Assembly: GCA_017467585.1 (NCBI GenBank)
Contig: JAFUSR010000004.1
Span: forward strand, 77,918 to 141,917
DNA from: Clostridia bacterium
GTDB taxonomy: Bacteria; Bacillota; Clostridia; Christensenellales; UBA1242
Length of the DNA stretch: 64,000 nucleotides
Direction of reading: 5' to 3'
A model generated the notes under the pieces. It saw nothing but the letters and a program-made list of their open reading frames with translations. It had not been told where the DNA came from and did not search any database. This document shows positions 24,001-57,105 of this stretch, piece by piece (the first letter of the stretch is position 1; each line of letters opens with the position of its first letter). The position numbers and the translations under genes are program-made.

Positions 24001-26588
24001 CAACCGCAAACAACTATCAAGGCGAAACATTTAACTATGCTGCAACAACAGCAGAACTTATCAACAACTCTGCAATTAATTCAGTTGTTAGCACATCTGT
24101 TTCTAGTGGTGCTTCAATTACTAAGGTTGATGCAAAAACCTTGAAGATTGTTTACACAACTTCAACAGCTAATGTAACCAGCGGTTCTGCAACGGTTAAA
24201 AACGACCCAATTTATTCAACAACAACGCTTGAACACTTAATCAGTGTAGATACTCAGGGTGCTGCAGAAGTTCACTTATACTTGCCAATCAAGAACGCAA
24301 GCGGAAAGATTCTCTATGTTCTTGACTTTTCAAACCAAGAGACTGGCGTTGACTATAACAGAACAGACTTTGCAACAAACACAAGCTCTTCAAATGGCAG
24401 CCTGGCTCTTTATAGCAGACAACAGAGCCACAAGACAACTCTTCGCTCAATCACAATTTTGGGCAAATCAATCACCAATTCAACCTATAGTTGCACAATT
24501 AATTCTGTTGTGTCTAAGATAGGTAATAAGAACGGTGGTAGTGGACTTACAAACTTCAGCTTTATCACTTATTGGGATAAAGACTATGCAGTTTCTGTCA
24601 ACTCATATTATTACTTCTATAATTTGGCATCTGTTAAACTTGGTGGCTCAGACATTGTTGGAGCAAGCAACAAGGGCATTTCAACCAACAAGCACAGATG
24701 GGGCAGTGGAACATCTGCTGTTGCATACACAACCAACAACGAATCTTCTAATGTCACAACCAACATCTATAACGCGGGAACTTACACCAACGGCAGTCTG
24801 ATGAACAAGACTCTTGCTGTAACAACCTCGTTCTCTACCTACGGAACAATTAAATATTCTGGTTATAACAGAACAACACAAACAACCGGTGTTGTTGCAA
24901 CAATCGAATATATTTCTAATGGTTCTAGCGGATTCTACAACAACGGAACATTCAACCTTTCTGCAATTTCAGATGACCTTTCTAGTCAAATGATCTTAAC
25001 TGGCTACACCAACTCTGCAACCGATGGACTTGGAGTTTGGAACTTGAACACAAACTACACAGTTTGGAGAATTCTCGCAGCAGTAATTGCAATCCAAGGC
25101 GACTATGACGTTGCAAAAGCAGATGCACAAATTCAACTCCGCGCTAACTACGAATTGTCTTCAGTATGGCTTTCATACTCAAATGGCAATGGTAAAGGCT
25201 TTGGTGAGATGGATACTTACGCATCTTCAAGCTCAAGCATAACAGTTAAGAGAAGCGCAACCGATTTGCAAGACGCAATCGACTTCTATCTTGCAAACCT
25301 TAACAGCTCAGATTGGGGCAAGGTTGCAACCCTCACAATCTATAACAGTGGTGTTGCTCTCTCTGGTGGCTTCACATTGTCTAAAGCTCTAGTTATGACA
25401 AGCGGAATGCAACTCACAATCACAACCAGACACGGCAAGGTTGTTGGCACAGGCACAGGCAAAACAACAACAATCGATGGCGGAACTCCAGCAAGAGAAA
25501 CAATCAAAATTGCTGGCTCAATCAGCATGACAGGTGCTGCTGGATTCTTCGATGTTAAGAGTGGCGCAACTCTTGCATTCACCAACATCGACTTTGATGT
25601 TGCATCATTTGCCGCAGGAACAGCAACCAAGATGTTCAACATTGGCGGAACTCTGAACATCAACAAGTCAACCAGCGGAACCGACGCAAACATCTCTAAC
25701 GACGGTGCAACTGGAACATCAACAACAGCCTACAGAACAAAAGTTACTGGTGCAACACCAGGCGGCTCAGGAATTGTTCTGTTCTATGCAAGTGGCGATG
25801 CCGCAAAGATTAACGCAGTTAACATCAACATTTCAAATCTCAAACCTGGCAATACATCTAGCACAGATGTTCTCAGAAGCATATTCGTTATCGATGGTGG
25901 TGCTCACACATTCAAGAATATCAGAATCGCTGGCGCAAGCTATGTTGGCCCAGCAATTGCAGTCAACAACACCTCAACCGGAACCGACAAAACTGTTACA
26001 TTCGAAAATGTTGTGTTTGCACCTAGTGGATACACGGAGCTCTCGTATATCGAGAGCACCGGCACCCAGTATATTAATACCGGCATAACTTCAATACCTG
26101 CTCCGTTTTCTATAGAAATCACATATCTGAAATCTAACACTAATACAAACGATCAATGTTTGTTTGGAAGCAGGCAACTTGGTAAATTTGTGAACATATA
26201 TGGTAATTATTATGAAACAGCTTTTGGTAATACTGCCTCAAATACAGCTAATGGAGATAATAACACACATACTATTTTATGTGACAGTACATCTGGGTTC
26301 TATAAGGATGGGACAAAACTAGCTACATCTTACAGCACATTAGCTAGTCGCAGTTCAACACAACCAGGGCTAATTTGCGCATTCACCGAAGAGGAATCGT
26401 TTTCGCCAAAATGGTTTTTCGTAGGAAAGATATACTATGTGAGAATAATTGTAGATGGGAAAATGTTCCACGACTTTATTCCTATGAAGCGCAATAGCGA
26501 TGGCGCAATTGGCCTCTACGACGCCGTAACCGGCACATTCTACACCAACGCTGGCACGGGCACATTCATCGCCGGCCCCGAAGTGTAA
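3..26588 (+). CDS. Giant surface-type repeat protein, 5-prime partial (more than 8,861 codons in the window). Mostly Listeria-Bacteroides (InlB B-repeat / Flg_new-type) repeats with nested accessory domains.
   Basis: One stop-free frame runs from window position 3 to TAA at 26586-26588. The ORF-track Met at 66 is internal: the same frame reads ...[22 protein letters not shown]... upstream with no stop. Many tens of roughly 65-75 aa units carry the signature Y-x-[IV]-x-[FY]-x-x-N-G-G ... P-[ST]-R-x-G-Y-T-F-x-G-W ... L-Y-A-x-W. The C-terminus (...[18 protein letters not shown]) has no LPXTG or hydrophobic anchor. Confidence 0.9.
   Translation, partial: [8861 protein letters not shown]
696..1130 (+). 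repeat. Intragenic module M, copy 1 ([50 protein letters not shown]...)
   Basis: One of four copies of a roughly 145-aa module. The first roughly 85 aa are conserved and the last roughly 55-60 aa are unrelated between copies. Confidence 0.8.
3315..4010 (+). other. LamG/concanavalin-like domain nested inside a Listeria-Bacteroides repeat, copy 1
   Basis: The host repeat opens [47 protein letters not shown] and closes [15 protein letters not shown] about 190 aa later. The insert (...[16 protein letters not shown]...[25 protein letters not shown]...[10 protein letters not shown]...[10 protein letters not shown]) has the pattern of LamG-type lectin-fold domains. The fold is assigned by pattern recognition only. 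Confidence 0.6.
4287..4725 (+). repeat. Intragenic module M, copy 2
   Basis: [52 protein letters not shown]..., followed by a copy-specific segment. Confidence 0.8.
9681..10375 (+). other. LamG/concanavalin-like nested domain, copy 2
   Basis: Paralogous to 3315-4010. It shares a 56-nt perfect match (3900-3955 = 10269-10324). The host repeat opens [45 protein letters not shown] and closes [14 protein letters not shown]. Confidence 0.6.
14227..14625 (+). other. Roughly 130-aa beta-sandwich-like insert nested in a repeat ([36 protein letters not shown]...[19 protein letters not shown]...HTLTAAW)
   Basis: It interrupts a host repeat at the same place as the LamG-like inserts, between GYTFxGW and the closing xLxAxW strand. 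I do not recognise the family and the fold is a guess. Confidence 0.4.
14916..15350 (+). repeat. Intragenic module M, copy 3
   Basis: [52 protein letters not shown]..., followed by a copy-specific segment. Confidence 0.8.
15950..16620 (+). other. LamG/concanavalin-like nested domain, copy 3 (divergent)
   Basis: The host repeat is [47 protein letters not shown] ... [15 protein letters not shown]. The insert is ...[26 protein letters not shown]...[25 protein letters not shown]...[10 protein letters not shown]...[10 protein letters not shown]. Confidence 0.55.
16908..17360 (+). repeat. Intragenic module M, copy 4
   Basis: [52 protein letters not shown]..., followed by a copy-specific segment. 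Confidence 0.8.
18655..19100 (+). other. CBM / galactose-binding-like domain candidate
   Basis: The segment [88 protein letters not shown]...[25 protein letters not shown] resembles CBM4/9-type sugar-binding modules. This is a pattern-level call only. Confidence 0.4.
19185..19760 (+). other. 'YIxSTGTQ ... [19 protein letters not shown]' domain, internal copy A, nested in a repeat
   Basis: ...[32 protein letters not shown]...[34 protein letters not shown]...HTLYARW. It is flanked by the two halves of a host Listeria-Bacteroides repeat. Confidence 0.7.
22740..26020 (+). other. Non-repetitive roughly 1,100-aa region of the giant protein, including a probable right-handed beta-helix-like stretch near 25400-26000
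   Basis: No GYTFxGW/LYAxW periodicity is visible after about 22740. The segment ...[23 protein letters not shown]...[31 protein letters not shown]...GGTLNINKS...[10 protein letters not shown]...[10 protein letters not shown]...VTFENVVF has the short alternating-strand look of parallel beta-helices. Confidence 0.45.
26025..26585 (+). other. 'YIxSTGTQ ... [10 protein letters not shown]' domain, terminal copy B
   Basis: [21 protein letters not shown]...[37 protein letters not shown]. It shares both terminal motifs with copy A, but the core is diverged. Confidence 0.7.
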
Positions 26589-26590
26589 AA

Positions 26591-26630
26591 CTTTAACAAA
26601 AAAGCATAACCAACAACGGCTATGCTTTTT
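26591..26630 (+). repeat. Direct repeat DR1 (terminator-hairpin copy) on the left flank of the GIY-YIG cassette
   Basis: ctttaacaaaaaagcataaccaacaacggctatgcttttt, compared with DR2 ctttaacaaaaaggcataaccaaatcagttatgccttttt at 27251-27290. The first 23 nt match 22/23, the loops differ, and the stems are preserved. Confidence 0.75.
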
Positions 26631-26633
26631 TTT
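26598..26633 (+). terminator. Rho-independent terminator of the giant gene
   Basis: The sequence is aaaaAGCATAaCCaacaacGGcTATGCTtttttttt, 10 nt after the stop codon. It has a stem with one internal mismatch and a T8 run. Confidence 0.7.
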
Positions 26634-26635
26634 GC

Positions 26636-26680
26636 GTCATGCTAACCGAAGTGCCAGCGGCACGGAGTGGAGAGCATCTC
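26636..26680 (+). repeat. GC-rich GTCAT...ATCTC unit, copy A
   Basis: GTCATGCTAACCGAAGTGCCAGCGGCACGGAGTGGAGAGCATCTC. The closing stem is ATGCT/AGCAT and there is an inner hairpin GTGCC-agc-GGCAC. Confidence 0.7.
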
Positions 26681-26725
26681 ATCAATCCCTTTACTTTTCT
26701 TTTGTTTATGTGCTAAACTTTTTGT

Positions 26726-27010
26726 ATGAAAAATTATTATGTGTATATCCTTACGAATAAAAATAATAGTGTTCTATATGTGGGCATAACAAACAACATA
26801 GAACGCAGAACAATGGCACATGTGTTTTTTGAAGAGAATTCTTTCTGCGCGAAATATAATATAAATAAACTTGTTTATGTTGAACAATATTTGTCTTCGT
26901 ATGATGCTATATCTCGTGAAAAACAACTTAAACATTGGGGAAGAAAAGCCAAAGAAAAGTTAATAAATTCAATTAATCCAGAGTGGAGAGATTTGTTGAA
27001 AAATGACTAA
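26726..27010 (+). CDS. GIY-YIG nuclease family protein (small stand-alone URI-domain type, COG2827-like), 94 aa
   Basis: The protein reads MKNYYVYILTNKNNSVLYVGITNNIERRTMAH...REKQLKHW. The GIY (YVY), YIG (YVG), Arg and Glu motif positions are all present. There is no Shine-Dalgarno sequence, and an extended -10 (TGcTAAACT, 26711-26719) lies 6 nt upstream of the ATG. Confidence 0.85.
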   Translation: MKNYYVYILTNKNNSVLYVGITNNIERRTMAHVFFEENSFCAKYNINKLVYVEQYLSSYDAISREKQLKHWGRKAKEKLINSINPEWRDLLKND

Positions 27011-27031
27011 TGTGTTAGAGGTTTCAGCCCC

Positions 27032-27079
27032 GTCATTCTAAGCGAAGCGACCGAACGGGAGCGTAGTCGAGAGGATCTC
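27032..27079 (+). repeat. GC-rich GTCAT...ATCTC unit, copy B
   Basis: GTCATTCTAAGCGAAGCGACCGAACGGGAGCGTAGTCGAGAGGATCTC. The closing stem is ATTCT/AGGAT, with one G-T wobble. Confidence 0.7.
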
Positions 27080-27094
27080 GTGTGTAAAGCGGCT

Positions 27095-27141
27095 GAGATT
27101 GCCACGACTACACACGCACAGCGTGTTCCGCTCGCAATGAC
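27095..27141 (-). repeat. GC-rich GTCAT...ATCTC unit, copy C (inverted orientation)
   Basis: The reverse complement reads GTCATTGCGAGCGGAACACGCTGTGCGTGTGTAGTCGTGGCAATCTC. The closing stem is ATTGC/GCAAT and there is an inner hairpin ACACGC-tgt-GCGTGT. Confidence 0.7.
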
Positions 27142-27162
27142 AATTTTTATCCTCTGCCCGCC

Positions 27163-27209
27163 GTCATTGTAAACGTCAGGAACAAAGCGACCAAAGTCGA
27201 AACAATCTC
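27163..27209 (+). repeat. GC-rich GTCAT...ATCTC unit, copy D
   Basis: GTCATTGTAAACGTCAGGAACAAAGCGACCAAAGTCGAAACAATCTC. The closing stem is ATTGT/ACAAT. The unit is itself enclosed by a 12-nt inverted repeat with one mismatch: atcctctgcccg (27149-27160) and cggacagaggat (27209-27220). Confidence 0.7.
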
Positions 27210-27220
27210 GGACAGAGGAT

Positions 27221-27240
27221 CACGCAGTCGAGAGGGTTTC
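27221..27240 (+). repeat. Partial (3-prime half) GC-rich unit, copy E
   Basis: cacgcAGTCGAGAGGgtttc matches the 3-prime half of copy B (gcgtAGTCGAGAGGatctc). Confidence 0.45.
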
Positions 27241-27250
27241 ATTCACCAAC

Positions 27251-27290
27251 CTTTAACAAAAAGGCATAACCAAATCAGTTATGCCTTTTT
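27251..27290 (+). repeat. Direct repeat DR2 (terminator-hairpin copy) on the right flank of the GIY-YIG cassette
   Basis: The sequence is ctttaacaaaaaGGCATAACcaaatcaGTTATGCCttttt. It has a perfect 8-bp stem plus a T run and probably also works as a terminator ahead of leuS. Confidence 0.75.
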
Positions 27291-27302
27291 CTTCTCAAAC
27301 AA

Positions 27303-27331
27303 TAGACAACTTTCGGCTTTTGTGTTAAACT
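27303..27331 (+). promoter_or_regulatory. Candidate sigma-A promoter for leuS
   Basis: TAGACA, 17 nt, TAAACT. An RBS (AAGAGG) lies at about 27342-27347 and the ATG is at 27356. Confidence 0.35.
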
Positions 27332-27355
27332 CTTTTTGTAAAAGAGGAAACAAAA

Positions 27356-29761
27356 ATGAAACAATACAATCCCGCCGAAATTGAGCCAAAATGGCAACAG
27401 AAATGGGAAGAAGAGCACAGGTTCGAAGTAAAAAACCACGAGCCAGGAAAAGAAAACAGATATGTTTTAATTGAATTTCCATATCCAAGTGGAAAAGGTC
27501 TTCACACTGGTCACGTTCGCAGTTATGCCGCAATGGATGCCGTTGCACGCAAACTGCGCATGCAGGGCTATAACGTGCTATTCCCTATGGGCTGTGATGC
27601 CTTTGGTCTTGAGGCAGAGAGAACAGCCATTCGCGAACACAAACTCCCACAAGAAATTGTTGCAAGAAACATTGCCATGTTCAAAAAACAACTAAAATCT
27701 GTTGGTCTTTCTGTCGATTGGAGCAGAGAGGTTAACACCAGCGACCCAAACTATTACAAATGGACACAATGGCTGTTTTTGCAGTTCTATAAGCATGGCC
27801 TTGCCGAAAAGCGTGCCATGATGGTTAACTATTGCCCAAACTGTGGCGTTCTTGCCAACGAAGAGGTTGAAGACGGAAAGTGTCTGCAATGTGGCGCTCA
27901 AACAGAACAAAGGGCAAAAAACCAGTGGATTTTAAAAATTACCAAATATGCCGAGCGCCTTGCTGACGACCTTGTTGAAACAAAATATATGCAACACATC
28001 AAAACCAGCCAAATTAATTGGATTGGCAAGAGTGAAGGCGTTGAGGTTGATTTCAAAACAACCGCAGGCGTCAATTTTTCAATTTTCACCACCTGCATCG
28101 AAACAATTTTTGGAATCACCTTTATGGTTGTTGCTCCAGAGAGCAAAATTGTTGATGACTTAAAACCATACATAACCAACTGGAACGAGGTTGAAGCTTA
28201 CCGCAAAGAAACCGCAAAAAAGAGCGAATTTGTGCGTAGCGAACTCAACAAAGACAAGTCTGGCGTTGAACTTAAGGGCGTGCTTGCCATCAACCCAGCA
28301 AATGGAAAAAAAGTTCCAATTTATGCTGGCGACTTTGTTATTGCAAGCTACGGAACTGGCGCAGTTATGGCTGTTCCAACTCACGACCAACGCGACTTTG
28401 AGTTTGCCGATAAATATGGCATTAACAAAATTCAAGTAATCAGTGGCGCAGACGTTTCTGAAAAAGCCTTCGAAAAGGGCGAATATCTCGGAAAAGGTTG
28501 CAAACTGATAAACTCTGAGGAATTTTCTGGTTTGACCGTTGAAGAGGCAAAAATTGCCATCACAGACAAACTTTCAAAGGCTGGTGTTACTCGCAAACGC
28601 CTAAACTTTAAGCTTGCCGATTGGGTGTTCTCGCGCCAACGTTATTGGGGCGAGCCAATTCCTATGATTTATTGTGAAAAATGCGGTTGGCAACCTGTTG
28701 ACGAAAAAGATTTGCCAATTGTTCTTCCAAAAACAGATAACTACGAGGCCAACAAAGAAGGCGAAAGCCCACTTGCGGAAATAAAAGACTGGGTAAACAC
28801 AACTTGTCCAAAATGTGGTGGAAAAGCCAAGCGCGAAACCGACACAATGCCTGGTTGGGCAGGAAGTTCGTGGTATTATTTGCGTTATTGCGACGCCCAC
28901 AACGACAAAGAGTTTGCAAACTTTGACGCTCTTAAGGCATGGCTTCCGGTTGGACTATATAACGGTGGAAACGAGCACACAGTTCGCCACCTTCTGTTTG
29001 CAAGATTTTGGAACAAATTTTTGTATGATATCGGTCTCAGCCCAGTGAACGAGCCATTTGAGAGCCGCGTTTCTCAAGGAATTATTCTTGGTTCAAACGG
29101 CGTTAAAATGAGCAAAAGCCTAGGCAATGTTGTTGACCCACTAGATGTTATTAAAGAATATGGTGCGGACGCACTAAGACTTTGGGAAGCATTTATTGGC
29201 GACTATTTTGAAACTGTTAGCTGGTCAGACGACGGCGTTAAATCTTGCTATAGACTTCTTAACAGAATTTGGAACATGCAACAGATGTTAACAGAAGAAA
29301 ACGTGAAAGAACTTAACTATGCCATCAACCATGCAATTGCAAAAGTTACTGACGACATCGACAACATAAAATTTAACACTGCAATTGCAGAAATAATGAC
29401 ATGCACCAACGAAATTTATAAAGTTGGAAAAATTTCAAAAGAGCAATATAAAACACTTATAACATTAATTAGCCCTTTTGCACCTCATATTGCAGAAGAA
29501 TTGTTCGTTCTTTGCGGTTTTGGCGAATTTAAAAATGCAACCTGGCCAAAGGCAGATCAAAATGCGCTTGTTTTAAACACCATTGAATTGCCAGTTCAGG
29601 TTAACGGCAAAATGAGAGGAGTGATAACTGTTTCAGCAACAGCTTCTCAAGACGAAGTTGTTGAACTTGCAAAAGCAAATTCAGAACTTTCAAGATATAT
29701 TCAAGGAACAATTCGCAAGGTTATTTATGTTCCTAAAAAGATTTTGAACATTATTGTTTAA
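27356..29761 (+). CDS. leuS: Leucine--tRNA ligase
   Basis: 801 aa. The N-terminus is YNPAEIEPKWQQKWEE...FPYPSGKGLHTGHVRSY (HIGH-type motif), followed by ...VKMSKSLGNVVDP (KMSKS), giving typical bacterial LeuRS layout. Confidence 0.97.
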   Translation: MKQYNPAEIEPKWQQKWEEEHRFEVKNHEPGKENRYVLIEFPYPSGKGLHTGHVRSYAAMDAVARKLRMQGYNVLFPMGCDAFGLEAERTAIREHKLPQEIVARNIAMFKKQLKSVGLSVDWSREVNTSDPNYYKWTQWLFLQFYKHGLAEKRAMMVNYCPNCGVLANEEVEDGKCLQCGAQTEQRAKNQWILKITKYAERLADDLVETKYMQHIKTSQINWIGKSEGVEVDFKTTAGVNFSIFTTCIETIFGITFMVVAPESKIVDDLKPYITNWNEVEAYRKETAKKSEFVRSELNKDKSGVELKGVLAINPANGKKVPIYAGDFVIASYGTGAVMAVPTHDQRDFEFADKYGINKIQVISGADVSEKAFEKGEYLGKGCKLINSEEFSGLTVEEAKIAITDKLSKAGVTRKRLNFKLADWVFSRQRYWGEPIPMIYCEKCGWQPVDEKDLPIVLPKTDNYEANKEGESPLAEIKDWVNTTCPKCGGKAKRETDTMPGWAGSSWYYLRYCDAHNDKEFANFDALKAWLPVGLYNGGNEHTVRHLLFARFWNKFLYDIGLSPVNEPFESRVSQGIILGSNGVKMSKSLGNVVDPLDVIKEYGADALRLWEAFIGDYFETVSWSDDGVKSCYRLLNRIWNMQQMLTEENVKELNYAINHAIAKVTDDIDNIKFNTAIAEIMTCTNEIYKVGKISKEQYKTLITLISPFAPHIAEELFVLCGFGEFKNATWPKADQNALVLNTIELPVQVNGKMRGVITVSATASQDEVVELAKANSELSRYIQGTIRKVIYVPKKILNIIV

Positions 29762-42144: not shown

Positions 42145-44250
42145 ATGAGCATAGGAAAAAAGGTTTTAATTTGGATAATCATTGCAATTGCAACTGTTGC
42201 ATTTTTGTTTGTTGGATTGGTTGTTGCAATGATGCTCGCCCCAGGAATGGAAGTTTTTGGAGTGAGATATGTTTCTGCTCAAATAGGAAAGTTTAAAGAA
42301 AGTCGAAACATAGCATTGTCCGGAACAAATATAGTTCTTAACACTCACGATGTTCCAATAGAGATTGTCTTTGGCGGTTCAGGAGAAGTCTTGCAATATG
42401 TTCAAGAATTTCAGGGATTCACAAAATCTAGCGATAAGGCAAGCGTTAATGTGAAGACAGAAGGCGGAACAACCACAATAGATATCGGTGAATACAAGAA
42501 GTTCATCTGGTCAAACAGAATGACAAATTTTTCTTTAAAACTTAATTTGCCACTTTCACTTTCTTCTAACTCACTTACAATAAATTCAGACTCAAGCACA
42601 ATCAATTTGACCGCTGGTGCAACAACATCAATGCGAGATCTCTCAATTAAAACAACCGGCAAAGTTAATTTTAATGACGTTGATGGTGCATCAGACACAT
42701 TTACAATAACAAACAACTTAGCTATTTCCACAAGAAGCAATATCGCCCTTGGCTCAAACGTAAACATTGGCGGAAGCGTTACTGCAAATGTTGGAAATGA
42801 AGACTTGACAATTACAAACGCAATTTCAGGAGACATTAATTTTACAAGTGGTTCAGGAGATTTAAACTTTTACACTTGCAGAAATTTGACCGCAACAACA
42901 GGGTCGGGAGACATCAACCAACCACAATTAAAATTAATCAGTGGAAACTTAATTTTTAAAACAACTTCTGGAGACGTCACCATTGACACAGTTAATGGAG
43001 GCGCAACAATTGGAGCAAGCGGAAACGAAACAAGCTCAGGAGTGTTCACTCTTGGCAAAGTTGTTGGAGCAACTCAAATTTATACAAGACGTGGCGAAAG
43101 CAGACTTGGAATTGTTGGAAGTTTGCTTGTTAGAACCTCAACTGGTGATATAAGTGTTGACCAAGTTTTAGGCAAGCTAGATGTGATTTCAGTTGCAAAT
43201 GGAAAACTTGCTTGCGGAAAAGATAACAACACAACATGTGTTGGTGGTTCAGCAGTTGTTTACACAAAGAATGGCGAAGCAAAATTTATTGGTTCAATCT
43301 ACGGAAATCTTGAATTTTGTTCTTCAAATGCAACCCTATTATTTAAGTCTTGCAACAACTTAATTATTAACAAACCAACCGATACACAAGCAGCAAACGC
43401 CATTGGAGAACTGGGCAATGGAAGTGTTAACACCAGTTATTCTTCTGGGGCAACCGTTGCTGGAACAGTAAATGCATATCTTTCTAATGGTTCACTTACC
43501 CTCGCATCAGTTGGTGGATCAACAAACACAATCAACAGCAAATATGGAAATGTTTCAATTGCTACAATTAGTGGAAACTTAACGGTTTCAAAAGACAATA
43601 GTTATAACGCAAGATACACAATCGGAAGTGTTCAAAACCTAGTGTTCCGTTCAACTTATGGCGCAATAACTGTTGGCAGCGTAACATCTGCTGACATTCA
43701 AACAAACGCAAGAGTTTCTGTTGGCGATGCTGAGTCTGCAACAGTTGGAAACGTGACTGTTGCTGCAATATCTGGTGATGTTGTTCTTAAAAACACAACG
43801 GGCACAGTTAACGTTGTTTCTAACGGAAGCATAACAATTGAAAACAAATCTGGAACAGAGTTTAATATCAACAGAAAATATGTTGATGGCAAATATAAAA
43901 ACCTTGCTTCTGGCGCAGTAACAGCAACAGGATTACAAGGAAATGTAATTGTTTATTCAGAAAAAAAGGTAGATCTTGGCTTTGCTCAAATTTCAGGAAA
44001 TGTTGATGTTTTAACAACTGGCGTTAACCCTGTTAAAATTGACGCAAAAAACACCCCATATAACTCAATCAACTATCATTTGCAATGTCAATACGGACCT
44101 AATGTCTGCACTGTTAATTGGGGAAACACTCCAGCCGACAACAGTGGTAGAAAGACAGTTGGAACAGATCCAGACAATGACTCTTTTTACACAATAAAAG
44201 TTCTTACAACAAATGCAGCAATAACACTCAATTTGAAAGAGGCTGCCTAA
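42145..44250 (+). CDS. Membrane-anchored protein with DUF4097-like ('putative adhesin', SGD-motif beta-helix) repeats
   Basis: 701 aa. An N-terminal TM helix (VLIWIIIAIATVAFLFVGLVVAMML) is followed by recurring ...SGDI/SGDV... strand motifs (SGDINFTSGSGDLNF...TTGSGDINQP...TTSGDVTIDT...STGDISVDQ...ISGDVVLKN). The family is assigned by pattern only. Confidence 0.55.
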   Translation: MSIGKKVLIWIIIAIATVAFLFVGLVVAMMLAPGMEVFGVRYVSAQIGKFKESRNIALSGTNIVLNTHDVPIEIVFGGSGEVLQYVQEFQGFTKSSDKASVNVKTEGGTTTIDIGEYKKFIWSNRMTNFSLKLNLPLSLSSNSLTINSDSSTINLTAGATTSMRDLSIKTTGKVNFNDVDGASDTFTITNNLAISTRSNIALGSNVNIGGSVTANVGNEDLTITNAISGDINFTSGSGDLNFYTCRNLTATTGSGDINQPQLKLISGNLIFKTTSGDVTIDTVNGGATIGASGNETSSGVFTLGKVVGATQIYTRRGESRLGIVGSLLVRTSTGDISVDQVLGKLDVISVANGKLACGKDNNTTCVGGSAVVYTKNGEAKFIGSIYGNLEFCSSNATLLFKSCNNLIINKPTDTQAANAIGELGNGSVNTSYSSGATVAGTVNAYLSNGSLTLASVGGSTNTINSKYGNVSIATISGNLTVSKDNSYNARYTIGSVQNLVFRSTYGAITVGSVTSADIQTNARVSVGDAESATVGNVTVAAISGDVVLKNTTGTVNVVSNGSITIENKSGTEFNINRKYVDGKYKNLASGAVTATGLQGNVIVYSEKKVDLGFAQISGNVDVLTTGVNPVKIDAKNTPYNSINYHLQCQYGPNVCTVNWGNTPADNSGRKTVGTDPDNDSFYTIKVLTTNAAITLNLKEAA

Positions 44251-55305: not shown

Positions 55306-57105
55306 ATGAAAAGATTAAAACAATTAATTGTGTCAATTGCTTTGGTGTTTGCATTGGCAATTCCAGCCTTTGCGCTTGTTGGATGCAACATGCTTAAGTC
55401 AAACAAAAACAACAATTCAGATCAACAAGACGAACAACAACAATCACAGGCCCTGACAATCTCTCAGGTTCTAAATGATTTTGGAACTCACTTGCTTGCC
55501 ACAGACGAATTGGTTCCAGAAAAATTAAATGTGCTGCTCAGAGATAAGGGTGAGCATGAGGCAATTACAAACGAATTAAAAAGCTTCGATATTCCTTATG
55601 ATGATTATGAAGGTGAACTAAACGCAGACCAACAGGCTGAACGTGTTGCTGCAATAAACAGAAAAGCCGCATTAGAAGAAAGACAACAACAGCTCGAAGA
55701 ACTCTATGACGTTGATAATGTCGCAGATTTTGAAGATAAAATGAATGATCTTTTGGACGAGAATGTTTATGCAATGGCATATTTCAATGTTGGAATTCCA
55801 TCAGAATCAGGCACCGATTATCCAGGTCAAGATCAATATGGTGAGTTACTAAATCAATATCATCAATGGCTTGGTCAAAACTTTACGGCAGTTGGTCAAT
55901 TAGCTGTTGTTAATGCAAAAGAAAACACACCATACATGGATAGCAATCAAGAACTTGTATTCCAATATTCAATTTCAGACAACATGTTAACAATGCTAAT
56001 TAATTCTCGTGATGATGTATTTGCTGTTAACTATGTTTATGACAATTCTAAACTTGTTGCAATAACAAGTGAAAGTTATTATGCCGAAAAGTCTGTTGAA
56101 GAATTTTCTGAGCCTCAAGAATCAGGCCCAGATGTTGAATATACTTTAAACAACTCAACCACAAATTTACAAACAGCTTATTATGATGTTGAAAACAACA
56201 TGTGGTATCAAGTTTCTTTGCATGAAGAATATAGCATTGATTCTCGCAACACCAACAAATATGTTCCAGCTTTGGAAGATTTTGTTGCCGCATACAACGC
56301 TGGCAAAATGACATCAGCTGTTATGAACAAATTCTTTAATTCTGACATCGATTACACATTTATGGCATTTGACGTGCTTTCAGGAAAAAATGAGTTGTCG
56401 ACTAACCACTCATTACATATCGAAAGTTCAGACCCAATAAAGGCTCTCAAAGCAGTTAAGTCTAAGATTAACACTCTTCCAACAGAGACTGTTGAATTTG
56501 ATATTAACTTGTTTGATATTGAAGAACTTGAGTATCCTGAAGAAATTCCAGAAGAGATGGAAGAATTAGAAAAGTATTTCGTCGAGAGAAGAGAACTTTT
56601 AAACATTTCTAAATATGATGAAAACTTAGAGCTTGTTTACAAATATGACAGACTAGATTTTCCACCAAAGACAACACTTGCAAAAGGTCAAGCAATTTTA
56701 GTGTTGACTAAAATGGTTAAAGCTTTGCAAGAAAAAGATTACAACCAAGAAGCAGAAAGATTTAATGCTTATTTTGGAGGCTATTATTATATAGATGCAG
56801 AAACTGAGGGGCAAACATTTGAGCGCATTGTCAGTGGCTTAAACAATGCCAAGAGAAACCTTCAAGAGACAACTGATTGGGATGGCGAAACTCTTGACCA
56901 AGTTTATGTTGCACCAGGTGAAGAAGAGCCAGGAAATTATTCAACTTGGAAAATACGAGAACACGTTGTGACAGATTCTTCTGTTGTCTATAGAATTGAC
57001 ACAGATTTTGGTTATAATAGCAATGGAGTTAACATCTTTTTTGAACTTTCAAATAGTGGGGAATTGCTTAATGTTGCAATACTCATGCAATATATCGGAG
57101 AATAA
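55306..57105 (+). CDS. Lipoprotein of unknown function, paralog 1 (599 aa)
   Basis: The signal peptide plus lipobox is MKRLKQLIVSIALVFALAIPAFALVGC. The mature part is acidic and Gln-rich and is collinear with the next gene. Confidence 0.8.
   Translation: MKRLKQLIVSIALVFALAIPAFALVGCNMLKSNKNNNSDQQDEQQQSQALTISQVLNDFGTHLLATDELVPEKLNVLLRDKGEHEAITNELKSFDIPYDDYEGELNADQQAERVAAINRKAALEERQQQLEELYDVDNVADFEDKMNDLLDENVYAMAYFNVGIPSESGTDYPGQDQYGELLNQYHQWLGQNFTAVGQLAVVNAKENTPYMDSNQELVFQYSISDNMLTMLINSRDDVFAVNYVYDNSKLVAITSESYYAEKSVEEFSEPQESGPDVEYTLNNSTTNLQTAYYDVENNMWYQVSLHEEYSIDSRNTNKYVPALEDFVAAYNAGKMTSAVMNKFFNSDIDYTFMAFDVLSGKNELSTNHSLHIESSDPIKALKAVKSKINTLPTETVEFDINLFDIEELEYPEEIPEEMEELEKYFVERRELLNISKYDENLELVYKYDRLDFPPKTTLAKGQAILVLTKMVKALQEKDYNQEAERFNAYFGGYYYIDAETEGQTFERIVSGLNNAKRNLQETTDWDGETLDQVYVAPGEEEPGNYSTWKIREHVVTDSSVVYRIDTDFGYNSNGVNIFFELSNSGELLNVAILMQYIGE

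Follow-up and report, generated by a model that had tools for sequence, protein, structure and literature searches.

Oriented repeats around a small GIY-YIG nuclease gene of an uncultured Clostridia bacterium as probable target sites of an SsnA-family enzyme

The nuclease gene and the repeats around it

We analysed a stretch of 64,000 nucleotides (hereafter the window) from contig JAFUSR010000004.1 of an uncultured Clostridia bacterium (assembly GCA_017467585.1, positions 77,918 to 141,917 of the forward strand), in which a gene for a 94-aa GIY-YIG nuclease lies among copies of a GC-rich repeat, between a giant open reading frame (ORF) and leuS. The gene is a homologue of ssnA, which encodes the nuclease of the Ssn system described in Neisseria meningitidis (Chenal et al. 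2025, Nat Commun 16:2388, PMC11893778), and the repeats are listed below as candidate Ssn-related motifs (SRMs), the general form of the neisserial repeat NTS. The initial annotation had placed four full copies and a half copy around the gene, one full copy being upstream and one inverted. A scan of the window for GTCAT-N(30-42)-ATCTC gave five matches where 0.75 were expected, and none of 100 shuffles gave five. Four of the matches confirm the arrangement of full copies, being oriented units of the form GTC-AT(N3)...(N3′)AT-CTC, 45-48 nt long and clustered around the gene. The fifth (42635-42678, − strand) is AT-rich, lies within an ORF and is probably a chance match; it was dismissed together with further pattern and model matches (56273-56315 and others) that fall inside ORFs with chance-level scores. 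The gene and the units, in window coordinates, are as follows.

26636-26680, + strand: candidate SRM unit A, 45 nt; stem ATGCT/AGCAT; inner hairpin GTGCC/GGCAC
26726-27010, + strand: ssnA homologue, 94-aa single-domain GIY-YIG nuclease (PF01541, E=5e-15)
27032-27079, + strand: candidate SRM unit B, 48 nt; stem ATTCT/AGGAT with one T.G; carries GCGAAGC
27095-27141, − strand: candidate SRM unit C, 47 nt, inverted; stem ATTGC/GCAAT; inner hairpin ACACGC/GCGTGT
27163-27209, + strand: candidate SRM unit D, 47 nt; stem ATTGT/ACAAT; inner hairpin CGAC/GTCG
27215-27241, + strand: degenerate 3′ half of a unit (GCAGTCGAGAGGGTTTC), 63% identical to the 3′ 27-mer of B; 3′ block at 27226-27240 with two mismatches

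All four units read cGTCAT...ATCTC or tGTCAT...ATCTC, and the pairing between the five bases that follow GTC and the five that precede CTC is exactly as had been noted; the single T.G of unit B is a mismatch in DNA. The elements H-GTC-AT...AT-C are kept in A, B, C and D, and the local consensus can be written as GTCAT-N3-(R)AGCG...AGTCGNG-N3-ATCTC with a variable distal hairpin. A shared 3′ half had also been described, and the 3′ block AGTCGNGNNNATCTC bears this out: B and C carry it exactly, and A and D with one mismatch each, the latter two having partly lost the GAGCG/AGTCG blocks. The inner hairpins of A, C and D are real, and their sequences are unrelated. Unit A ends 45 nt upstream of the ssnA ATG, which is the usual placement of an upstream (+) unit, and C is likely its partner, the two bracketing ssnA; the type of unit C recurs with a shorter loop beside the 76%-identical ssnA of another locus (L086). 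The half copy is present in sequence but not significant alone, as about six such two-mismatch matches are expected per window, and it is credible because it lies 17 nt from unit D.

In N. meningitidis, the 94-aa GIY-YIG protein SsnA binds NTS (CGTCATTCCCGCGMAVGCGGGAATCYRG, an extended form of dRS3) as single-stranded DNA (ssDNA) only; it binds the strand that carries GTC...C, the complement, duplex DNA and RNA are not substrates, and the cut is made a few nucleotides 5′ of the GTC motif (PMC11893778). The GTC located 5′ of the palindrome governs cleavage, the C just 3′ of it matters more for binding than any other base, the loop, whose sequence and length are immaterial, can be removed or extended, and the substitutions Y6A, Y17A and E64A abolish cutting (PMC11893778). 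The window protein shares 40% identity over 85 aa with SsnA of Neisseria gonorrhoeae (pairwise E=2e-21), and in a tblastn search of a 7.3-Gb database it reached the gonococcal ORF with E=2e-12. This value passes the cut-off of E<1e-10 used in Chenal 2025, with the difference that our reference was the gonococcal NTS-flanked 94-aa ORF (L088:1513-1797) and the published cut-off is applied to the meningococcal protein. The record that supplied this gonococcal ssnA with its NTS (L088, NZ_CP119140.1) is, like NZ_CP119142.1, a 2.17-Mb N. gonorrhoeae chromosome filed as a plasmid in PLSDB. Residues Y7, Y18 and E65 of the window protein align with Y6, Y17 and E64 of SsnA and are invariant in a 34-sequence alignment, and the intact ORF retains all 17 columns that are invariant across these homologues. 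The PF01541 domain spans residues 3-76, and no second domain was found.

Searches of NCBIfam and PADLOC with the window protein returned sub-threshold generic GIY-YIG matches only (TIGR01453, 19.5 bits against a cut-off of 56) and no assignment to a known defence system. The PDB search gave only the distant UPF0213 structure 1ZG2 (E=1e-5). A phage origin was rejected, since no homologue was present among 50,697 phage records.

Stem covariation and association with ssnA across phyla

Compensatory change in the closing stem had been taken from the four window copies alone, and it holds in a set of 11 units drawn from the window locus, from its sister strains (L001) and from L086 and L087, the two homologous loci nearest to it. 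Of the stem cells in this set, 94% pair, versus 75.9% with the 3′ partners shuffled (0 of 500 shuffles were as high), and four of the five stem pairs show changes on both sides. In the orthologous unit of L087 the otherwise constant second pair, T-A, has become C-G. When the partners were slid by one to three columns as a control, pairing fell to 26-58%. A covariance model built from 92 units, all from other genomes (R1), returned the four window units as its top four matches in the window: C with 28.0 bits (E=1.3e-4), D with 19.0 (E=0.019), A with 18.7 (E=0.023) and B with 16.1 (E of about 0.1), the E-values of A, B and D being marginal one by one (0.02-0.1). Units were also picked by GTCAT and ATC alone, so that selection could not favour pairing. 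Among these anchor-only units near the gene, stem positions 3-5 are Watson-Crick paired in 70-79%, compared with 24-27% in shuffles, and 17 distinct closing stems were sampled. Positions 6-7 pair below chance because the commonest type keeps G.A/A.G there.

The window ORF has more than 900 homologues. Thousands of ssnA homologues have been reported across phyla, most of them in Gram-negatives, with at least one SRM nearby in 71% and SRMs on both sides in 42%, and ssnA is present in 81% of genomes with more than 200 SRMs (PMC11893778). We collected 80 ssnA loci from many phyla and searched them with a strict motif (GTCAT, three nucleotides, 6-45 nt, the complement of those three nucleotides, then ATC). 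This gave 373 non-overlapping units versus 12.9 (maximum 21) in block-shuffled loci, which strongly confirms the proposed co-occurrence of the repeats with GIY-YIG genes. More than half of the units (204 of 373, 55%) lie within 250 bp of the gene, i.e. in 5.6% of the sequence, and unit density around ssnA is raised roughly 20-fold across phyla. Units occur upstream in 60 of the 80 loci, downstream in 53 and on both sides in 45; of the units nearest to the gene, the upstream one has (+) orientation at 47 of 60 loci and the downstream one (−) orientation at 39 of 53, the latter often beginning 0-8 nt past the stop codon. Unit length across the 80 loci is mostly 25-26 nt, which places the 45-48 nt of the window in a long tail. 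A second GIY-YIG gene was found in only 4 of the 80 loci, so the distal arrays are dispersed copies; such arrays lie far from any ssnA and on both strands, and arrays with alternating (+) and (−) units of two types were also seen in ssnA loci. The initial annotation had mentioned GTCATTGCGAGC...GCAATCTC units beside small GIY-YIG ORFs or translated with them. This was verified, both translated examples being N-terminal extensions of homologues that consist of the repeat read as protein (CHCERSEAIS twice in P0067, SVIASPPTGGRSNL in P0007).

Gene and repeat overlap in several genomes. In L014, L036, L040 and L046 the nuclease ORF runs through the downstream inverted repeat and ends at a TGA within its terminal ATGAC, so that the stop codon comes from the repeat end, and in L086 the TAG stop codon of ssnA overlaps the first bases of the repeat. 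At L024 (4777-4833), L032, L041, L073 and L017, truncated 5′ halves stand head-to-tail before a complete unit (GTCATCCTGAGCCCAT, GTCATCCTGCGTCCAT, then the full unit), which suggests repeated insertion, or cleavage and repair, at one point of the hairpin.

A structured RNA was the other possibility raised by the initial annotation. The units might then act as processing or stability hairpins, as attenuators or as small RNAs of one family co-transcribed with the nuclease gene. Such a role would suit the covarying stem and the variable inner hairpins, and the units do lie in untranslated regions beside promoter-like and terminator-like elements. However, one of the four copies is inverted, and family-wide the upstream units are mostly (+) and the downstream ones (−), so that GTC...C would read differently in a transcript; dispersed arrays distant from ssnA occupy both strands. 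Rfam gave no relevant family in the region (E up to 10), in the whole window or in 14 typical related loci, the folding energies are unremarkable, and the characterised SsnA does not bind the RNA version of its site. We therefore regard an RNA function as highly improbable. The proposed selection on a hairpin holds for its ssDNA part, which matches the biochemistry of the homologue, and fails for its RNA part.

Long-loop units resembling those of the window were sought in metagenomes with the local consensus given above, a pattern that does not demand complementarity, yielding 78 loci with 55 distinct sequences. Watson-Crick pairs form at stem position 3 in 42 of the 55 and at position 4 likewise in 42, with three to four pair types, and at position 5 in only 10. 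An ssnA homologue lies within 500 bp of only 5 of the 81 long-type matches; the other 76 are not beside ssnA, which indicates that the subtype is mostly dispersed. A highly uniform 37-39-nt repeat, GTCATACCGAGCG...AGTCGAG(C/T)GTATCTC, recurs on many metagenome contigs (L097, L100, L103, L107, L108, L114 and others), one of them titled human gut; it has a 4-bp closing stem and a C.C or C.T mismatch and usually lies away from ssnA.

This scarcity of long-type copies beside ssnA, together with the likeness of the alternating two-type arrays to BIMEs, would be expected if the units were REP/BIME- or MITE-type repeats moved by a transposase encoded elsewhere (RAYT or IS200/IS605 Y1), with the GIY-YIG gene a mere neighbour. 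Such an origin is nevertheless exceedingly improbable given the roughly 20-fold enrichment around ssnA, the published biochemical pairing of SsnA with its repeat and the published presence of ssnA in most SRM-rich genomes. The units also lack a REP-like 5′ motif of the GTAG/GTGG type, and no Y1 transposase is encoded in the window region, where the adjacent gene is the GIY-YIG nuclease.

We consider it very probable that the repeats are SRMs, oriented hairpins recognised as ssDNA by the SsnA-family GIY-YIG nuclease encoded between them. The suggestion that the repeat is the recognition substrate of the adjacent nuclease thus agrees with the published biochemistry of the homologue, by analogy with which the window enzyme would act. 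As established for homologues, the strand bearing GTC, palindrome and C would become single-stranded and the palindrome would fold; the 94-aa enzyme would then bind the stem base and the flanking C and cut a few nucleotides 5′ of GTC. The same recognition may be expected for units A-D because all four keep GTC, the AT...AT base and the 3′ C, with covariation inside the stem and long loops of unrelated sequence. The predicted cuts in the window lie in the top strand 5′ of A, B and D, and in the bottom strand 5′ of C; these strands could be exposed for example during replication, DNA uptake or repair, and the cassette would spread or persist selfishly. In Neisseria, the system reduces transformation by NTS-bearing DNA (PMC11893778). 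The most likely roles here are a selfish cassette similar to an insertion sequence or a REP element, or restriction of incoming or exposed motif-bearing ssDNA.

Several observations weigh against this reading. The published SRM search pattern, HGTCWYN(0-2)YYVSBRHN(0-5)WNVSBRGN(0-2)RNCYNB (26-35 nt), has no match in the window, none of A-D included, and finds only 16 sites in the 80 loci. We regard this pattern as a heuristic tuned to NTS-like stems and read the mismatch as the pattern being too narrow; owing to its failure, what places the units in the family is their invariants (H-GTC, AT...AT, C), their context and the protein homology. As hairpins, the units of the window are weak, with a 5-bp closing stem, an interior of 30 or more nucleotides and a T.G mismatch in B. 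Their DNA folding z-scores (−0.36, +0.36, −0.77 and −0.38 for A to D) make them no stabler than shuffled sequence, compared with −4.07 for the gonococcal NTS, under an energy model that gives no credit to the conserved G.A-type mismatches. As thermodynamics gives no support, the case for a hairpin is carried by covariation and family membership. Neisseria SsnA is inactive when the palindrome sequence is altered with its structure retained (PMC11893778), and since the units are also weak, binding by the window SsnA cannot be assumed; some of the copies may be decaying relics. In addition, pattern and covariance model found no further repeat copy in the rest of the window, and no ribosome-binding site is visible upstream of ssnA.

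Insertion of the cassette upstream of leuS

The giant ORF ends at 26588 and leuS starts at 27356, with the ssnA cassette between them. Relatives whose LeuS is 92%, 87% or 83% identical keep the synteny of giant ORF and leuS, and their sites (L089/L090, L091, L092/L093) are empty, with an intergenic region of 120-178 nt that holds neither ssnA nor repeat. The LeuS relatives and spore-germination genes also place the host in Clostridia, against a candidate-phyla-radiation host, which the giant ORF and the first ssnA matches had suggested. The cassette is AT-rich relative to its surroundings, the GC content of ssnA being 28-31% versus about 45% in the flanks. These empty sites and this composition, together with the mosaic duplication that flanks the cassette and the strain-level instability described below, show that the whole unit of A, ssnA, B, C, D and the fragment is an insertion. 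Further features of the region are given below.

26588-26633, + strand: terminator-like hairpin and T-run after the giant ORF (left duplicate); inverted repeat 26598-26611/26618-26631, 93% complementary
26706-26725, + strand: copy of the −10 region of the leuS promoter, diverged (TGTGCTAAACT) and immediately before ssnA; 77% direct repeat with 27318-27343
26985-27010, − strand: doubtful mini-unit GTCATTTTTCAACAAATCTC, overlapping the last 8 ssnA codons and the stop; 13.2 bits, E=0.5
27149-27220, + strand: outer 12-nt inverted repeat ATCCTCTGCCCG / CGGACAGAGGAT, enclosing unit D; 92% complementary
27248-27343, + strand: right duplicate, with a diverged terminator-like hairpin (27255-27293) and the leuS promoter TAGACA-17-TAAACT with TG (27303-27331)

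An intergenic terminator-promoter segment of about 100 nt is duplicated around the cassette (26588-26731 versus 27248-27343) in a mosaic pattern. The left terminator-like segment is identical to the single one at the empty site of L089, and the leuS promoter of L089 matches the right promoter copy of the window; these two copies are thus native-like, while the left promoter and the right terminator have diverged, the latter in both stem arms. A simple terminator scan called neither of the two terminator-like hairpins. The resulting order (native terminator, A, diverged promoter, ssnA, B, C, D, diverged terminator, native promoter) is the one expected if a circle that bore a diverged copy of the site had integrated by a single crossover, and a long target duplication followed by divergence is a possible alternative. 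We found no short target-site duplications at the repeat ends. Flanking direct repeats of at least 20 nt were present in 13 of 75 loci, with two more of 17-18 nt, against a control maximum of 14, and these mostly mirror array structure. The 76%-identical ssnA of L086 sits in another genomic context, behind an unrelated gene. From its sequence, the segment at 26706-26725 may function as a promoter, and ssnA may be read as a leaderless message from this duplicated TGTGCTAAACT element.

Two further features of the region are tentative. The outer inverted repeat around D looks like an older unit of the ATCCT/AGGAT type with D nested in its loop, and this nesting, along with the stacked 5′ halves at other loci, hints that long units arise through insertion into loops. 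The mini-unit at 26985-27010 is placed where other loci have their usual downstream (−) unit; DNA folding gave it no stable fold, and it is doubtful as a real unit, as it may only mirror the conserved WRDL codons.

The array also differs between strains. Over 6,285 nt, contigs L002 and L003 are identical to the window, whereas L001 and L004 are 100% identical to it over 6.1 kb except for an extra 149 bp (3418-3566 in L001, same coordinates in L004). This segment comprises a 39-nt linker absent from the window, a further B-type unit (B′) with a perfect ATCCT/AGGAT stem where window B has T.G, a 15-nt spacer and a second C (C′). As the linker is unique, the window form is most simply explained by deletion between direct repeats. 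Collapse during assembly is unlikely as the cause, because each form is present in at least two assemblies and the repeat of about 110 nt is shorter than the k of 141 (from the ‘k141’ name of the short-form L002).

One tentative extension of these observations, which we hold as possible though with a good deal less confidence than not, is that the ssnA-SRM cassette is an autonomous mobile element that enters intergenic sites beside terminator hairpins and duplicates about 100 nt of target, its repeats growing by loop nesting and shrinking by recombination between copies. It would move by Campbell-type integration of a circle with a diverged site copy or by widely staggered nicks, and loop nesting would explain the long 45-48-nt units. 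The likeness of NTS-ssnA-NTS to an insertion sequence is speculation in the publication (PMC11893778), the role of the repeats as transposition substrate that the initial annotation had envisaged is conjectural, and the empty sites are indirect evidence for insertion only.

The same array could instead be a set of non-functional relics, decayed SRMs of an old insertion that no enzyme recognises, with ssnA possibly silent. The folding z-scores near zero, the T.G in B, the partial loss of the GAGCG/AGTCG blocks in A and D, the fragments and nested pieces, the absence of a ribosome-binding site before ssnA and the diverged flanking duplication would all be in keeping with decay. However, the ORF is intact with 17 of 17 invariant columns kept, each of the four units still has GTC, AT...AT and C and a stem that pairs, and B′ of the sister strains has a perfect stem. 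The 149-bp indel is recent and indicates an array that is still dynamic, and a homologue tolerates loop extension in vitro. We thus judge relics to be an unlikely explanation of the array as a whole, and prefer its reading as recognition sites.

The giant ORF occupies window positions 1-26588 (+); it extends beyond the start of the window, which holds at least 8,860 of its codons. On near-identical contigs its called length is 18,679 aa (16,547 aa in L004), and in relatives 7,636-10,560 aa; it is built from repeated TGYTFxGW-type modules. A giant-ORF fragment of one relative matches PF09479 (Flg_new, Listeria-Bacteroides repeat); Pfam gave no match for the last 862 aa of the window ORF. In a more distant relative, L094 (783-1802; LeuS 81%), a reverse-transcriptase (RVT_1) gene stands upstream of leuS instead of the giant ORF, and the intergenic neighbourhood upstream of leuS seems to attract different insertions.

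Relation to known systems and implications

The novelty implied by the initial annotation does not stand, as the system was published in 2025; we found no later literature on Ssn or SRMs, and literature searches with literal repeat sequences such as GTCATTGCGAG yielded nothing relevant. Beyond Chenal 2025, the present analysis adds units that long loops and different stems place outside the published pattern, as is true of most units of relatives, an empty site, the mosaic duplication of about 100 nt and the 149-bp indel. The window locus shares with the Ssn family of N. meningitidis, N. elongata, N. wadsworthii and Wolbachia pipientis a 94-aa single-domain GIY-YIG protein with the same catalytic Tyr/Tyr/Glu, and oriented hairpin repeats that bracket the gene, their palindromes starting with AT and being preceded by a conserved GTC and followed by a conserved C. 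It also shares repeats on both sides and in both orientations, in an insertion-sequence-like repeat-gene-repeat layout. It differs in the length of its units, 45-48 nt compared with about 28 nt for NTS (SRMs are described as inverted repeats of 20-50 nt; PMC11893778), and in their build, with only a 5-bp closing stem, the inner blocks (R)AGCG...AGTCGNG and a variable distal hairpin. The host belongs to a Gram-positive lineage, with spore genes nearby; only a local cluster is visible in the window, compared with hundreds of dispersed copies elsewhere; and the published members have biochemistry, whereas the window member is known from sequence alone.

The authors of the publication liken NTS-ssnA-NTS to insertion sequences and to REP/RAYT/BIME (PMC11893778). 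REP, REPIN and BIME elements with RAYT (IS200/IS605-like Y1) likewise combine short extragenic palindromes, recognition of ssDNA hairpins, a conserved 5′ flanking motif, repeats in inverted orientation around a single-copy enzyme gene and mosaic arrays of alternating orientation. They differ in employing an HUH/Y1 transesterase rather than a GIY-YIG hydrolytic nuclease and a GTAG-type flanking motif rather than GTC...C, and transposition is not shown for Ssn. GIY-YIG homing endonucleases of the I-TevI and I-BmoI type share the GIY-YIG core in a small, selfish-looking and horizontally moving gene, but have DNA-binding modules at the C-terminus (NUMOD/HTH) and cleave duplex DNA, their sites being long, asymmetric and located in intron-less or intein-less alleles; the window protein lacks both an additional domain and an intron context. 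Dunin-Horkawicz 2006 (PMC1564403) assigned the minimal, stand-alone GIY-YIG proteins of prokaryotes to the Slx1 cluster. The UPF0213/YhbQ-type, ‘Slx1-like’ stand-alone proteins (PDB 1ZG2) resemble the window protein in their minimal domain of about 100 aa, but the similarity is distant (E=1e-5 to 1ZG2) and a repeat association is undescribed for that group.

In genome annotation, GC-rich units of this kind, which are often mistranslated into odd peptide extensions (CHCERSEAIS is one), can be given the label of Ssn target repeats in place of unknown repeats or candidate RNAs. The diversity of Ssn repeats exceeds the published pattern, which misses both the long-loop units with 4-5-bp stems and the widespread CCTGAGCGAAGCGAAGG-type units, and published prevalence figures are therefore probably underestimates. 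The empty site in relatives provides direct comparative evidence that the ssnA cassette is a recent insertion. Finally, these natural loop-extended sites could be used to test the stem length that an Ssn enzyme needs, a question of relevance to the proposed programmable ssDNA cutter.

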